From the NCBI GenBank assembly GCA_048940645.1, contig JBHLOI010000024.1:1-50167 (forward strand): DNA of 50,167 nucleotides, in the 5' to 3' direction. Both the position numbers and the translations under genes were made by a program. This stretch comes from Promethearchaeota archaeon. Lineage in GTDB: Archaea > Asgardarchaeota > Lokiarchaeia > Sigyniarchaeales > SOKP01. Below the pieces are notes generated by a model. That model had not been told where the DNA came from. It worked only from the letters and a program-made list of their open reading frames with translations, and did not search any database. Each line of letters opens with the position of its first letter. The stretch's first letter is position 1. This document shows, piece after piece, positions 16,982 to 31,374 of the stretch.

Positions 16982-17993
16982 TATCCATCCCCAAATTCTT
17001 TAATAATTTTATATATCTCAATGGTTCTTCTTCAAAAATATAAAGTGCTGGAGCAACAACTACACCACTGCCACCAATTTCTCGGAGATTTCTTATCGCT
17101 TGTTGTAAATTTTTTCTTTCGACAATAACGTGAACTGCAAACATATTTTCTCTATTTTTGGTAAATACAGCAGATATTGTAGGTCCTTGTAGTCCTTCAA
17201 GCCCTTCTTTAGAGAAAATTGCCTTAGCAATTTCTTCACGACTTTCTCCTCTCATGTTTACGAATACTGATACAAATTTTTGGGCTCTTAAGGTTGCTTC
17301 GATATATTCAATCAATCCCCGAGCAGTTTTTAAAATAGTCTCATTCTTCAGTGATCTGCGATTACCTATAAGTACAGATTCAGAAGTCATTATTTGACCT
17401 CCATTTATCCTTTTTAAACGATTATCCTTTAATGTCTGGCCCGTTGACACAAGATCAACTATAATATCACTATACCCCAACTCTGGATATACCTCAAGAG
17501 AACCATTTCCCTCAATTAATTCATAAGTTATGTCAACTGAATTTAGGAACTGCTTAGTAAGCTTTGGAAATTTTGTAGCAACACGAATTAGCTTTTTATT
17601 CTGTTTAATCTCATCAATTGAATTTTCAGGCCATTCTTCAGGAATGGCTATTTCAAGGCTGCACTTTCCAAAATTTAGCGCATCATGTATAACTATTAAC
17701 TCATTATCATATTTGGGTAAATATTCACGAACTAAATCGTAGCCAACTATTCCCATTTCTAATGATCCATTTAATACCCCCCTAACAATATCTACTTGAC
17801 GTTGATAAACTAGTTGGAGATTAATGGGCCCCTCTATTGTTCCAATATATTGTCTGTTGTTTCTTTGTATATTAAATCCACAGGATCTTAAGAACTCCTG
17901 AGTTTCACTTTCCATTCTTCCCTTTGAAGGGATAGCTAGTCTTACCTTTCTTGATTTATACTTTGGAGATGATATTTGTAGCTCTTTTCTCAT
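16974..17993 (-). CDS. hisG: ATP phosphoribosyltransferase, long form
   Basis: LAIPSKGR, ATKFP, DIIVDLVSTGQTL..NRL; C-terminal regulatory domain GLQGPTIS...GGSGVVV. Confidence 0.95.
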   Translation of the reverse strand: MRKELQISSPKYKSRKVRLAIPSKGRMESETQEFLRSCGFNIQRNNRQYIGTIEGPINLQLVYQRQVDIVRGVLNGSLEMGIVGYDLVREYLPKYDNELIVIHDALNFGKCSLEIAIPEEWPENSIDEIKQNKKLIRVATKFPKLTKQFLNSVDITYELIEGNGSLEVYPELGYSDIIVDLVSTGQTLKDNRLKRINGGQIMTSESVLIGNRRSLKNETILKTARGLIEYIEATLRAQKFVSVFVNMRGESREEIAKAIFSKEGLEGLQGPTISAVFTKNRENMFAVHVIVERKNLQQAIRNLREIGGSGVVVAPALYIFEEEPLRYIKLLKNLGMDSD

Positions 17994-18898
17994 TTATTTC
18001 GCCTCCATAATTCATTTATAATTTCATCTGGCTGTATTTTATTTTTAGCCATTAAAACAAGGATAAAATATGTTAAGTCAGCAATTTCCCAGATTAAGTT
18101 ATCTCTATTAGTATAATTTATCAATTCCAGACTCTCTTCTTGAATTTTCGATAATAAATATTCATTATCTTCAGCGAGTCTTTTAGTATAGGATTCTCTT
18201 ATTCCATAGTTTTCAATGCGATCATTGATTAAATCATAAAGATACTTTATTGAAAATTTCACATTTCGAAAACAAGAATAAGATCCCGTATGACATGCAA
18301 CACCTATTTGCTTTACTCTAAATAACAATGAATCGGTATCACAATCATAAAAAATTCTTTTCACGATTTGAATATTGCCTGATTCTTCCCCTTTTATCCA
18401 AAGACAATTTCGCGATCTACTGAAGTAGGTCGCTCTTTTGGTCATAATAGTATGCTTTATCGATTCTTTTGATGAATATGCAAGCATTAAAACAATATTA
18501 TTTTGGTCTTGTACCACTGTTGGAATTAGTCCATTCGATTTTTCAAAATTTAAAATCGGTAACAATCGATTGTCTATGAATGAATAATCCATCTTTAGGT
18601 CGAAGTTTATTATCTCATTTTCATTATAAGATTCAAGTTCAAAACTATTTATCCCGTGCATTTTTAGTAGCGATTTTAGCTCTTTTTGGTTGGGCTCTAA
18701 ACTAATCCCTAATTCAATTTTTTTAGAAGCATCCTTGAGGGTTCCATCTTTTATCAGTGCTACAATACTGTTATTATTAGCCTTAAGAATAAGAGTAACA
18801 TATAAATCCCAACCTCGTTTTATAAATACTCCATCTATGAACTCCCTTAACCCTCCAATCTTTTCAAGTTCCTTCATATCTATTTTCAATATTAACAT
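17990..18898 (-). CDS. hisIE: Bifunctional PR-AMP cyclohydrolase/PR-ATP pyrophosphatase with N-terminal extension
   Basis: GLIPTVVQD, SRSR..LW.KGEESG, DCDTD, ACHTG..SCF (HisI); SYT..L, EIADL (HisE). Confidence 0.92.
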   Translation of the reverse strand: MLILKIDMKELEKIGGLREFIDGVFIKRGWDLYVTLILKANNNSIVALIKDGTLKDASKKIELGISLEPNQKELKSLLKMHGINSFELESYNENEIINFDLKMDYSFIDNRLLPILNFEKSNGLIPTVVQDQNNIVLMLAYSSKESIKHTIMTKRATYFSRSRNCLWIKGEESGNIQIVKRIFYDCDTDSLLFRVKQIGVACHTGSYSCFRNVKFSIKYLYDLINDRIENYGIRESYTKRLAEDNEYLLSKIQEESLELINYTNRDNLIWEIADLTYFILVLMAKNKIQPDEIINELWRRNK

Positions 18899-23749: not shown

Positions 23750-24997
23750 ATGTCTAAGGAAAAATTTGTGAGGGACAAGCCTCACGTGAACATTGGAACT
23801 ATAATATTAACTTTATTTGTTATTATTTCTATGGGTTCCCTCGGAATGATGATATACTCTGATATCATGGAAACGCGTGATAGTGATGGCGATTCAATCC
23901 CGGATCTTGAGGAGGACATTGCGAGTAGTGCTTTATTTTTCGACATCTCGGACGATACTCTATTTTTTCGTACATATGAGACTGGGACTAGTGGTCATGA
24001 AGTTGGTCATAATTTAGGTCTTTCTCATGATGGACTTAGTTCGCACGTAAATGTACGATTGGGTCTATTTGATGATGTTTCGGCAGGTATTCCGATTCTT
24101 GATTTTAATATTAAATATGACTCACTAATAGAGTTTGTGGATAGTGATAGTAATGGATTTTTTGACCCTGCAATAGATACGATCATAGGAAAAACAACAT
24201 TAGATAATATGCTACGATTAGGATTTGGATTTGGGGTTGAAGGAGAGCCTGCCTATTATTCAAGCTATTCTACAATTGATGGTGTATTCCACGTTGATTT
24301 CTATACTGCTAGAGAACATGTATTACTCGGTCGTCAAGTTGGACTATTGAGCCCATCTGAATTAAAATCTTATATAACATTTACTGAATATACACCGATA
24401 ACTGGAGGAACCCAATTGGCTTTAAATCTTTCATTAAGTTCGAGTCATGATATAACATTTTCAGGAACAACTTTATCGGCAATTTCATCAATTGGAAATT
24501 ATAAAGTGGAGTATGAATGGTATAATTGGGCAATAATTGATGATGTTGAAACAAAGGTAAATACAACAGTACCATCGTCCCCTATACCTTTAAATATTGG
24601 ATCAATTTATATCAATTTTGGCGAAGTAATCAATGGTACTTATGACCCGAAATTATATTGGCAAATTCCAAGACCAACTAGTTTTACTATTACCGATCTA
24701 CCTTGGTCGTATATTACAATTGGTTCAATTGGGGTAATAGCGGTAGGTGCGGCGGCGAAAATTCAAAGAGGGAAAAAAAAATCCAAAGAAAAACCAAAGC
24801 CAAAGCCACCAACAAATAAATTTGATATGATTGCCACTTCTGTTCAATCTACAGCCGAATCGGAAGATCATATTCCTAGGAAAAGACCTGGGCGCGTAAA
24901 ATATGGTGACATTCCTCCATCGCCAAAAGACTCACCTGAAAAGTCTACTAAATCTGAAAAGAGAATTCCAAGCACTTTACGTCATAGAAACCGCTAA
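23750..24997 (+). CDS. Membrane-anchored protein with a mosaic of short foreign-looking motifs
   Basis: N-terminal and C-terminal TM segments; see findings. Confidence 0.8.
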   Translation: MSKEKFVRDKPHVNIGTIILTLFVIISMGSLGMMIYSDIMETRDSDGDSIPDLEEDIASSALFFDISDDTLFFRTYETGTSGHEVGHNLGLSHDGLSSHVNVRLGLFDDVSAGIPILDFNIKYDSLIEFVDSDSNGFFDPAIDTIIGKTTLDNMLRLGFGFGVEGEPAYYSSYSTIDGVFHVDFYTAREHVLLGRQVGLLSPSELKSYITFTEYTPITGGTQLALNLSLSSSHDITFSGTTLSAISSIGNYKVEYEWYNWAIIDDVETKVNTTVPSSPIPLNIGSIYINFGEVINGTYDPKLYWQIPRPTSFTITDLPWSYITIGSIGVIAVGAAAKIQRGKKKSKEKPKPKPPTNKFDMIATSVQSTAESEDHIPRKRPGRVKYGDIPPSPKDSPEKSTKSEKRIPSTLRHRNR

Positions 24998-27790: not shown

Positions 27791-28339
27791 TCAAACATCT
27801 AAATCATTATCAACACCGATCATAAGACAACTAATAATATAAAAACAATCATTTACATGATTTCCTGTTTTAGCTGAGGTTTCTATATAGCGCAAGTTGA
27901 AGTCTTTTGCAAAATCATTTACTTCTTCGATAGAAACGGCTCTTTGGTCAGTTAAATCGCTTTTATTACCAACTAATAAAAGAGGGATTTCAATATTTAT
28001 ATTTTTTCGCACTTCTTCTATCCATTTGAAAAGATGCTCAAAACTAGCATAATTTGTTAAGTCAAATACTAAAATTGCTCCAAGAGCACCTCGATAATAC
28101 ATAGGTCTTATAGCACCGAATCGTTCTTCTCCACCTGTGTCCCATACTTGTAACTTGCACCTAATAACTCCCTCATCTGTATCTATGGATATAGTTTTAA
28201 CGTTAAAATCTACTCCAATGGTCATTTTATAATCTTCAGTAAAAATCCCTTTTGAAAATCTGATAGTTAAAGCTGTTTTACCTACCCCACCATCTCCTAT
28301 AACAATCGTTTTAAAAAGATACTCATACTCCTGAGCCAT
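27791..28339 (-). CDS. Rab-like small GTPase
   Basis: GDGGVGKT, TIGVDF, WDTGG, YYRGA, NKSD, ETSAK. Confidence 0.93.
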   Translation of the reverse strand: MAQEYEYLFKTIVIGDGGVGKTALTIRFSKGIFTEDYKMTIGVDFNVKTISIDTDEGVIRCKLQVWDTGGEERFGAIRPMYYRGALGAILVFDLTNYASFEHLFKWIEEVRKNINIEIPLLLVGNKSDLTDQRAVSIEEVNDFAKDFNLRYIETSAKTGNHVNDCFYIISCLMIGVDNDLDV

Positions 28340-29403: not shown

Positions 29404-31374
29404 ATGTTAATCATGAAACTTAAACGAAAAAGCTTAAATGTTTCTTTTATAGTAGGATTAACTCTGACGCTATTATTAGGAGGATTATTCTCATTTAATT
29501 CAAATCAACTAAATAATTTATCAGAACCAAAATATATCGACTTGAATCCAATCTCATCACCATATGAAGAATTTAAAAAAGGGAATTTTACAGGATATGA
29601 ATTTTCCTTTTACAATTTATCTGTTTACTTAGATGAAGATACAAGTACCGTAGCGGGGAATTTAATTGTTGATTTTTACAATAATGATCCTGTAAACTTC
29701 ACTCAGATACCTTTCCATCTTTATGCATCTGGGATGCGATATGATACAAGACCGGGTTATATTGAAATATTAAATGTAACTACATTAGCCGAGCCTAAGG
29801 AGGAACTGTCCTACGAAGTCTTTAATAGCACTCAATTAATGTGGGTAAACTTAACCACTGAATTAGAACCTACTAATCGGACTTCATTCATTATCTCTTT
29901 TAATACAACTCTACCAGATGGAGGAATTGATCGAGCAAATGAGCATGGGTGGGATCATAATGAGTCTCGCATTTTTAAATTTGCAAATTGTTATCCTCAA
30001 CCATGTGTGTATGATGAATTTGATGGATGGAATATTGATCCTTATTTTTTAGTAGGAGATCCTTTCTATTTTGACATGGCCTACTATGATTTAATCATAA
30101 ACGTTCCAGAAAATATGACTGTAGCAGCTACAGGTGCATTAATTGATAATAAAACAATCGGAGATAGAACAATATTTCATTATAATCCACGTCTACCTGT
30201 ACGGGAAGTGACATTTTCAGCATCTCGTTATTTTGTCGTAGAATCTGTAATCGTTTCTAATGCAAATGTTACCGTTTCGACTTACTTTCTTCCAAAATCT
30301 GATTGGTTATGGCACGAATTTGCTCTTGAGTCTATAAGCCCTGGTGGTTTATTTAATCTTACATTTGGGGATTATCCATATCCTACATTAAATGTCGTTC
30401 AAGAATATACTCATTATGGGGGAATGGAATATCCCTGCCAAGTCTATGCTTCTGAACAAGCAGATAGTGCTGATAATCCATGGGTATATCTTGAGACTGT
30501 TATAGTACATGAAGTCGGGCATCAATGGTTCTATAATTTGGTTGGGATTGACGAGGTTGATTGGGGCTTTTTAGATGAAGGTATTGTATGCTGGATTACA
30601 GATTGGGCAAAGGATTTTTTTCATCCTGACTGGAATCTTTTTGAACCATATTGGTTAATGGATTATGTATGGAATTATTCTTTGAATTATGGATTACCTA
30701 ATAGAATTAATCAATCTATCCCTGATTGCCTGAGTAGTAATACAGACTATTGGTACACAGCATATAGAAAAGCTCCAGTTGTACTTGAAAATTTACGGCG
30801 TATTATAGGAACCGATAAGATTCTTGAAGGTCTAAGAATCTTTACCCATGAATTTTACTTTGAAATTGCAACATTTACAGACTTTATTCAATCAATTGAA
30901 TCTGCAGTAGGTGAATCTCTAGATTGGTTTTTTAATCCTTGGTTTAATAACCCTTATCTTCCCAAATATAATTTTGTTGATGTAATATATGATGCTACAA
31001 GTAAATTACTCAATATTACAATTGAAGATGTTAACGAAGGTTTAAATCCATATAGTTATTCGCAACCAATCCCTCTCGAAATTTATAATAATAGCTTGAA
31101 CTTAGAATTCAATGGTGATACATGGGTTAATGGTACAACTTCTATTATCGTTCCAATAGAAACGGTACCAGTGCGTGTTGTTTTAAATTATTCTAATAAT
31201 ATTCCTGTTCAATTGTCACAGTATGGTTTAACCTATTTAGAAACTACAAATATCACAATTGTGAATATTCCATCTCAAGGGATCGCAGGATACGATATTT
31301 TAATTATCGTTTTCTGTTTCTGTGCTTTAGGATTGATAACTATCTATAAGAAGAATCGATCTTCTCATAAATAA
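29404..31374 (+). CDS. Membrane-anchored M1-family zinc aminopeptidase
   Basis: GGMEYP, HEVGHQWF-x-LDEG; N-terminal signal/TM; C-terminal IAGYD + TM + basic tail (Loki-CTERM-like). Confidence 0.9.
   Translation: MLIMKLKRKSLNVSFIVGLTLTLLLGGLFSFNSNQLNNLSEPKYIDLNPISSPYEEFKKGNFTGYEFSFYNLSVYLDEDTSTVAGNLIVDFYNNDPVNFTQIPFHLYASGMRYDTRPGYIEILNVTTLAEPKEELSYEVFNSTQLMWVNLTTELEPTNRTSFIISFNTTLPDGGIDRANEHGWDHNESRIFKFANCYPQPCVYDEFDGWNIDPYFLVGDPFYFDMAYYDLIINVPENMTVAATGALIDNKTIGDRTIFHYNPRLPVREVTFSASRYFVVESVIVSNANVTVSTYFLPKSDWLWHEFALESISPGGLFNLTFGDYPYPTLNVVQEYTHYGGMEYPCQVYASEQADSADNPWVYLETVIVHEVGHQWFYNLVGIDEVDWGFLDEGIVCWITDWAKDFFHPDWNLFEPYWLMDYVWNYSLNYGLPNRINQSIPDCLSSNTDYWYTAYRKAPVVLENLRRIIGTDKILEGLRIFTHEFYFEIATFTDFIQSIESAVGESLDWFFNPWFNNPYLPKYNFVDVIYDATSKLLNITIEDVNEGLNPYSYSQPIPLEIYNNSLNLEFNGDTWVNGTTSIIVPIETVPVRVVLNYSNNIPVQLSQYGLTYLETTNITIVNIPSQGIAGYDILIIVFCFCALGLITIYKKNRSSHK

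Follow-up and report, generated by a model that had tools for sequence, protein, structure and literature searches.

Short bacterial-like peptides in frame within a GLMP-fold membrane protein of Asgard archaea

Introduction

How short signature peptides of unrelated proteins come to stand together in one archaeal reading frame is the question raised by a membrane protein gene of a Promethearchaeota archaeon, located in a stretch of 50,167 nucleotides that is referred to here as the window. An initial annotation had recognized in the encoded protein the N-terminus of bacterial EF-Tu, a TSP3-like DxDGD loop, a metzincin zinc motif and a motif of contractile-injection tubes, and had proposed that pieces of foreign genes were written into a host scaffold by an undescribed process of capture, diversification or mimicry.

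The gene and its scaffold

The whole gene (23750..24997, + strand) encodes a 415-aa Asgard membrane protein with a GLMP-fold domain between two hydrophobic helices. All motifs lie in this single, uninterrupted frame at the positions originally given. The gene is flanked by a PAS kinase with a response regulator and by a DUF998 gene, and the GC content at the locus is ordinary. Other genes in the window are, by sequence, ordinary neighbours, i.e. a HisI/HisE-type gene (17990-18898), a Rab-like small GTPase (27791-28339) and an M1-type aminopeptidase with a membrane anchor (29404-31374). A clear EF-1alpha gene was not seen in the genome assembly (G000, 89.6% complete) and is probably unassembled.

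In the structure model (pLDDT 76, pTM 0.65), a helix at residues 15-42 is followed by a beta-sandwich at about 60-306, a second helix at 319-337 and a disordered tail. The first hydrophobic helix (23798..23869, + strand; aa about 17-40 by hydropathy) is a predicted signal anchor or signal peptide, and the second (24698..24760, + strand; aa 317-337) has a hydropathy of 1.55. The sandwich domain (23921..24667, + strand; aa 58-306), which contains three N-glycosylation sequons, matches the GLMP luminal domain (6nyq) with a Foldseek E-value of 4.6e-10 and a structural alignment Z-score of 19.7 (rmsd 3.5 over 232 residues), the next unrelated entry reaching a Z-score of 14.2. No match to Pfam PF15065 was obtained up to E 10. 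Judged by its modelled fold, the protein appears to work like a GLMP-type membrane glycoprotein and is neither a PF15065 member nor an EF-Tu, a metzincin or a tube protein. The topology that we infer has the GLMP-fold domain on the extracellular side and both the N-terminal leader and the C-terminal tail in the cytoplasm.

About 90 close homologs (41-78% identity) and about 50 distant homologs (20-32%; full HMMER search) were identified. The close homologs form an Asgard clade of about 90 proteins inside a broad archaeal GLMP-fold family, and their records, where named, are from Loki/Prometheo-, Hod-, Heimdall-, Thor-, Odin- and Bathyarchaeota. The broad family is present in 117 of 301 Asgard genomes, frequently as tandem pairs, and its widespread motif-free genes make it a candidate eukaryotic-signature family. 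Proteins of the motif-bearing clade have a patchy distribution: they occur in 11 of 400 genomes, which belong to several families, and their gene neighbours are unrelated. G000 contains the motif-bearing copy only. The gene neighbourhood of motif-bearing homologs is not conserved and includes no candidate MFSD1-type transporter partner. In one homolog (P0090), the first 123 family residues run into an unrelated Cys/His-rich, HNH-like sequence, reflecting either a mobile-gene insertion or a misassembly.

Two EF-Tu peptides

The leader (23750..23803, + strand) corresponds to EF-Tu residues 1-18 and would be cytoplasmic; aa 1-16 are kept throughout the family. When aa 1-18 were compared with PDB, all 53 matches were EF-Tu (best E 1.9e-5), and a search of NCBIfam returned EF-Tu only (E 6.5e-5). 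The segment is identical at 17 of 18 positions to a Myxococcota EF-Tu (L002), and its initial identification as an EF-Tu N-terminus is thus confirmed. In several homologs (L059, L064, L076, L078, L058, L061, and L062), leader codon 1 is ATC, ATT, ACG, TTG or GTG, which points to non-ATG starts or short extensions.

Comparison with the same Myxococcota EF-Tu revealed a second EF-Tu peptide, absent from the initial annotation, at 24311..24343 (+ strand). Its aa 188-198 correspond to EF-Tu positions of about 116-127 and are identical to residues 117-127 of the Myxococcota protein (11/11), and the longest exact EF-Tu match in 5000 shuffles was 7 residues. In an unbiased PDB search, 24 of 24 matches were EF-Tu (10/11 to E. 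coli) at a whole-bank E-value of 0.37, a match that by itself is weak but is telling in a protein whose start is already that of EF-Tu. The full EF-Tu form of this piece occurs in 68 of 83 homologs and a less EF-Tu-like variant in the other 15. A third candidate, GKTTL (aa 147-151), was rejected: approximately 12% of shuffles match at least 5 residues, and the segment is not conserved.

Zinc-motif and tube peptides

The metzincin zinc-motif peptide (23996..24034, + strand; aa 83-95) contains the HExxHxxGxxH motif and matches metzincin families weakly, with E-values of 0.0008-0.016 for Pfam Reprolysin_3. The motif is present as first recorded, with profile scores below the Pfam cut-offs. It is 12/13 identical to the motif in a 661-aa Myxococcota protein, a best-case value because this donor was retrieved by a pattern built from the motif. 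The three His residues are kept in 83 of 86 homologs, and the full metzincin spacing with Gly in 47 of 86.

The contractile-injection tube peptide (gp19-like, TIGR02241; 24878..24913, + strand) is located in the disordered tail (pLDDT <50), on the predicted cytoplasmic side. The window's own motif alone gave no profile match. Compared with a tube protein confirmed as TIGR02241 (E 1.6e-34), the window's motif is identical at 11 of 12 positions and the homolog P0087 at 15 of 18; both are best-case values, as this donor too was retrieved by a motif-built pattern. Homologs extend the motif to 18-22 residues and match Pfam gp19 (E 0.009-0.016) and TIGR02241 (E 0.01-0.05), which bears out the resemblance first noted. 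For the tube and protease pieces, profile E-values thus lie only in the range of 0.001-0.05. The tube pattern occurred 61 times in 52 of 201 Myxococcota genomes, versus 1 occurrence in the control, and 14 of 15 Myxococcota loci that were read are tube-like. Homolog tails carry one to three copies of the piece.

The tail contains further segments. Its variable part (24821..24877, + strand) includes FDMIAT and EDHIP, which had been listed as weaker candidates; each is exact in 1 of 89 homologs, i.e. private to the window's sequence, without family match or donor, and neither was retained as a foreign piece. A C-terminal motif (24956..24994, + strand) is common to most homologs, and no donor for it or for other tail pieces was found in donor searches and in NCBIfam and Pfam profile searches.

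A second scaffold with related pieces

Besides the GLMP-fold family, the leader profile finds small two-helix proteins in eight Thorarchaeia genomes. These proteins (about 45 clusters, 83-102 aa; P0152-P0196, with members at L034:3152-3427, L035:438-689, L036:4418-4696, and L037:478-753) carry the EF-Tu leader and are unrelated to the GLMP-fold family, and they resemble archaeal two-helix structures over residues 16-91, i.e. without the leader. One subfamily has a baseplate-like end: the tail of P0190 matches positions 16-34 of TIGR02243 (E 0.002), and the plasmid matches to this tail are baseplate genes. The other subfamily ends in the 8-residue motif KGKKILQN, shared with the GLMP-fold protein P0100 and putatively a VgrG-like end; no match to it was found in viral contigs, 201 Myxococcota genomes or NCBIfam. 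Because the two-helix family carries both the leader and a baseplate-like end, pieces of EF-Tu and of injection systems are found again on membrane proteins unrelated to each other, at ends that would face the cytoplasm. In the divergent GLMP-fold proteins P0094 and P0100, the stretch after the domain resembles by eye the start of a baseplate protein (L083), without a profile match, and is suggestive only.

Several other features were observed in Asgard genomes. A near-palindrome (core ACTATAGT and variants), possibly a regulator site, lies approximately 20 bases before the starts of two-helix genes and is conserved in L047, L050, L051, L056, L059, L061, L063, and L064. Zinc-ribbon proteins of 80-450 aa in Thorarchaeia genomes (L093-L104) contain one or two TIGR02243 pieces of 35-70 residues without the remainder, a third instance in which fragments, here larger ones, have been reused. 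An apparently complete extracellular contractile injection system locus, with sheath, tube, spike, baseplates and a DUF4157-like protein, is present in a Thorarchaeia genome (L115-L116; G260:C12, about 9300-38000), and contractile-tail virus or provirus regions were found on Asgard contigs (L113-L114 and L117 in G104; L118 in G041; L119 in G181; and L120 in G289).

An alternative explanation is that only the leader is foreign, serving the signal anchor as its charged n-region or as a translation leader, and that the other motifs are native or due to chance. In both families the leader is invariably followed at once by a hydrophobic helix, as this explanation would have it, and the zinc motif, which is weakly significant and degenerates, and the window's tube motif, which lacks a profile match, are also compatible with it. 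We nevertheless consider it unlikely. The second EF-Tu piece (11/11), a tube motif that reaches 15/18 in homologs and has a pN/pS of 0.10 within a disordered tail, and the baseplate piece that ends a two-helix protein are all left unaccounted for, and an n-region needs no 90% identity across 15 residues. A role as expression enhancer is opposed by the several homologs that lack ATG as the first leader codon.

Native and added segments

The DxDGD acidic loop (23879..23905, + strand) had been counted among the foreign pieces as TSP3-like. It is a single loop without a Pfam match and is native, because it is in register in distant relatives, of which 28 of 53 show a like pattern; judged by its sequence, it is probably Ca-binding. 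The four foreign-like motifs, on the other hand, were found in none of the 53 motif-free distant relatives. In the alignment with these relatives, the leader and the tail piece are extra sequence, and the two pieces inside the domain stand in place of scaffold strands and are 2-5 residues longer, the zinc motif replacing the third strand and the second EF-Tu piece a hairpin. The suggested placement at the terminus, in loops and in the tail therefore holds for the two ends, whereas the two in-domain pieces take the place of strands. It also holds that the pieces continue the reading frame of a host scaffold and lack the domains from which they would derive; they are absent from these relatives and recur on a second scaffold.

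The two motifs inside the domain are in register with the strands that they replace and have the same hydrophobic pattern, and a partial variant exists. These features would be expected if the motifs had evolved stepwise from the scaffold sequence, by selected resemblance or structural constraint and without DNA transfer. Such convergence is improbable in view of the near-exact identity to three donor families and of the leader and tail pieces, which have no counterpart in the relatives; in addition, the partial variant turns up at scattered places of the tree and not at its base (quick tree, with a root for drawing only).

Conservation and selection

The motifs are conserved in 81 of 81 (EF-Tu leader), 85 of 86 (HExGH), 83 of 83 (internal EF-Tu piece) and 84 of 84 (tube) homologs. 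The homolog alignment that had been suggested as a check thus placed each motif at one and the same position in nearly all close homologs. Among 19 genes, pN/pS was 0.09 for the leader, 0.10 for the tube piece, 0.19 for the internal EF-Tu piece and 0.23 for the zinc motif, as compared with 0.35-0.40 for the core, a comparison that favours conserved windows because the pieces were chosen as recognizable; the native DxDGD loop is equally constrained (0.18). In the same genes, pS of the motifs equals that of the core and GC3 is similar, and constraint at the DNA or RNA level was rejected on the basis of the equal pS. Synonymous distances in the motifs track those of the core (Mantel rho 0.40-0.51, p <=0.002), and homoplasy does not exceed the level seen in native windows of equal conservation (7.3 versus 8.6). 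Since the pieces are fixed, with low pN/pS, equal pS, core-like synonymous distances and no raised homoplasy, they are old, have been inherited with the gene, and are under purifying selection at the protein level. No trace of donor DNA is visible, the synonymous sites being saturated and GC3 host-like.

Gains of the motifs look stepwise. The divergent proteins P0094 and P0100 carry only the EF-Tu leader of the four pieces, and P0086 and P0087 have an HU-like start (Pfam E 0.036 for P0086).

The repertoire thus varies between deep branches (the HU piece, baseplate-like pieces, and tube copies), and motif variants stay within donor-family variation, as would be the case if an active, reverse transcriptase- or recombinase-driven system were still rewriting the motif positions. 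This possibility, the active diversification favoured at first, is also improbable: the sites and motifs are the same in nearly all homologs, synonymous sites follow the gene genealogy, homoplasy is not in excess, and the neighbourhood is not conserved. No RVT_1 (PF00078) match was found in G000, about 90% complete, nor was any other motif-bearing protein found there under the patterns and donor set tried. Neither of the two patterns searched in IMG/VR was found in viruses. Because the pieces are old, vertically inherited and under purifying selection, no ongoing shuffling is seen.

Improbable alternatives: genuine enzyme, decayed fusion or chimera

The protein could also be a real zinc metalloprotease, or a decayed fusion with EF-Tu or a tube protein. 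The three His and the Glu of the zinc motif are retained in most homologs, with Gly often lost, and the two EF-Tu matches follow the same order as in EF-Tu itself. In the model, the zinc-motif peptide forms a loop and a strand (residues 86-93) of a GLMP-like fold, and neither a metzincin fold with the motif on an active-site helix nor a score above Pfam cut-offs was found; modelled in this way, the motif cannot form a metzincin site, and it may be a plain metal-binding site. For EF-Tu, 18 of 394 profile positions match, without the G domain with its P-loop or domains 2 and 3, and for the tube, 18-22 residues match in homologs only, rather than a 140-residue domain in an injection or tail locus. 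Moreover, the stretches that separate the pieces can be aligned with relatives lacking the motifs. A real protease or a decayed fusion is therefore very improbable. The chance of a chimeric assembly is negligible, because the identical protein sits on eight contigs, some of them from two further MAGs and from two assemblies of sequencing runs, where its neighbours are unchanged, and the approximately 90 homologs come from many sources.

Origin and possible function

No shuffling is seen in the protein. Its additional EF-Tu piece, the tube match that homologs extend, the evidence for selection and the two-helix family mark it as a mosaic by origin. The best explanation, which we hold somewhat more readily than not, is stepwise capture of bacterial gene pieces that were later kept by protein-level selection. 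An old archaeal GLMP-fold membrane protein would have gained bacterial pieces of 11-18 codons in one Asgard lineage: first the EF-Tu leader, also seen on the divergent P0094 and P0100; next the internal EF-Tu, zinc-motif and tube pieces; and, in P0086 and P0087, an HU N-terminus. The two in-domain pieces would have been substituted for similarly patterned beta-strands through short-patch substitution at microhomologies, from which replacement with 2-5 extra residues is expected. All pieces have since been passed on as part of the gene, and selection at the level of the protein has maintained them. The foreign, horizontal origin of the pieces is likely; the short-patch mechanism is plausible, at somewhat less than even chances. 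Of the initial inference, the in-frame presence of short bacterial-like pieces stands, and the ongoing diversification, the foreign nature of the DxDGD loop and the placement in loops are not supported.

Fifteen residues of the leader and nine in the disordered tail are nearly invariant, a degree of conservation that exceeds the needs of charge and topology and suggests, from sequence comparison, specific binding. The pieces might thus act as binding handles, i.e. membrane-held baits or mimics that engage proteins recognizing bacterial EF-Tu or injection-system parts, a role that we rank first among possible functions and yet regard as rather unlikely; no candidate binding partner was found. 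In their parent proteins, the two internal pieces are helices. Structural mimicry by these two pieces is doubtful, because they are modelled as strands, on the inferred outer side. A slightly less likely, broader reading is that Asgard archaea possess a repertoire of membrane proteins displaying captured peptides of 11-20 residues from abundant bacterial proteins (EF-Tu, HU, injection-system tube and baseplate, and metalloprotease). The peptides would serve to catch or detect weapons of bacteria or effectors that bind EF-Tu, in a peptide-scale integrated-decoy strategy whose scaffold is related to a lysosomal protein.

No description of multi-donor peptide mosaics of this kind was found in the literature, chiefly openly accessible papers. 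The pattern would represent gene transfer between domains in pieces of roughly twelve codons; it would have happened more than once on one protein and again on an unrelated second protein, and the pieces have come under strong selection since. Because they score under the cut-offs of every family library, annotation misses them. Should the pieces be baits, they would point to an undescribed kind of conflict or recognition between archaea and bacteria. Separately, the scaffold provides an Asgard fold relative of the lysosomal GLMP, and no paper naming GLMP together with Asgard was found, again chiefly among openly accessible ones.

Comparison with known systems

The protein shares with bacterial EF-Tu (TIGR00485) near-identical residues 1-18 and about 116-127, but has neither a P-loop nor the GTPase fold, and its second piece is modelled as a far-side hairpin. 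Similarly, a 12-18-residue motif of the contractile-injection tube (TIGR02241 and PF06841) is found in a GLMP-fold family without the tube fold, in a genome where no tube or baseplate gene was found, and the likeness to the baseplate (TIGR02243) consists of a 19-residue motif in P0190 of the two-helix family. With GLMP/NCU-G1 (PF15065; PDB 6NYQ and 8R8Q), the protein has in common the outer-domain fold, a membrane helix after the domain and N-glycosylation sequons, whereas it is about 10% identical, has no PF15065 match and lacks a conserved transporter neighbour. GLMP is not known to carry foreign peptides. GLMP/NCU-G1 is an accessory subunit of the lysosomal dipeptide transporter MFSD1 (PMC6819133, PMC11252000).

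Reverse transcriptase-driven diversifying systems (DGR and RT-Cas1) have hypervariable target positions, whereas the motifs here are among the most conserved parts of the protein. Short-patch double illegitimate recombination, a rare mutation in which 3-100 bp are replaced by foreign DNA at microhomologies in Acinetobacter (10.1101/2023.11.22.568220), fits the size and replacement pattern of the pieces, but was demonstrated in that genus and not in archaea, and leaves their retention unexplained. Ancient shared peptides are likewise sub-domain fragments common to unrelated folds, but represent remote, pre-fold similarities (PMC4739770), whereas the Asgard pieces are nearly identical to their donors and confined to one clade.

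Integrated decoys of plant NLRs and short-motif mimicry by viruses resemble the Asgard protein in that pieces of another protein are displayed on a scaffold. The NLR decoys are whole domains of host origin, and viral mimicry motifs are mostly short and convergent. The Asgard protein differs in that bacterial pieces of 11-18 residues from several donors are set into a membrane protein of the cell that has no signalling domain.
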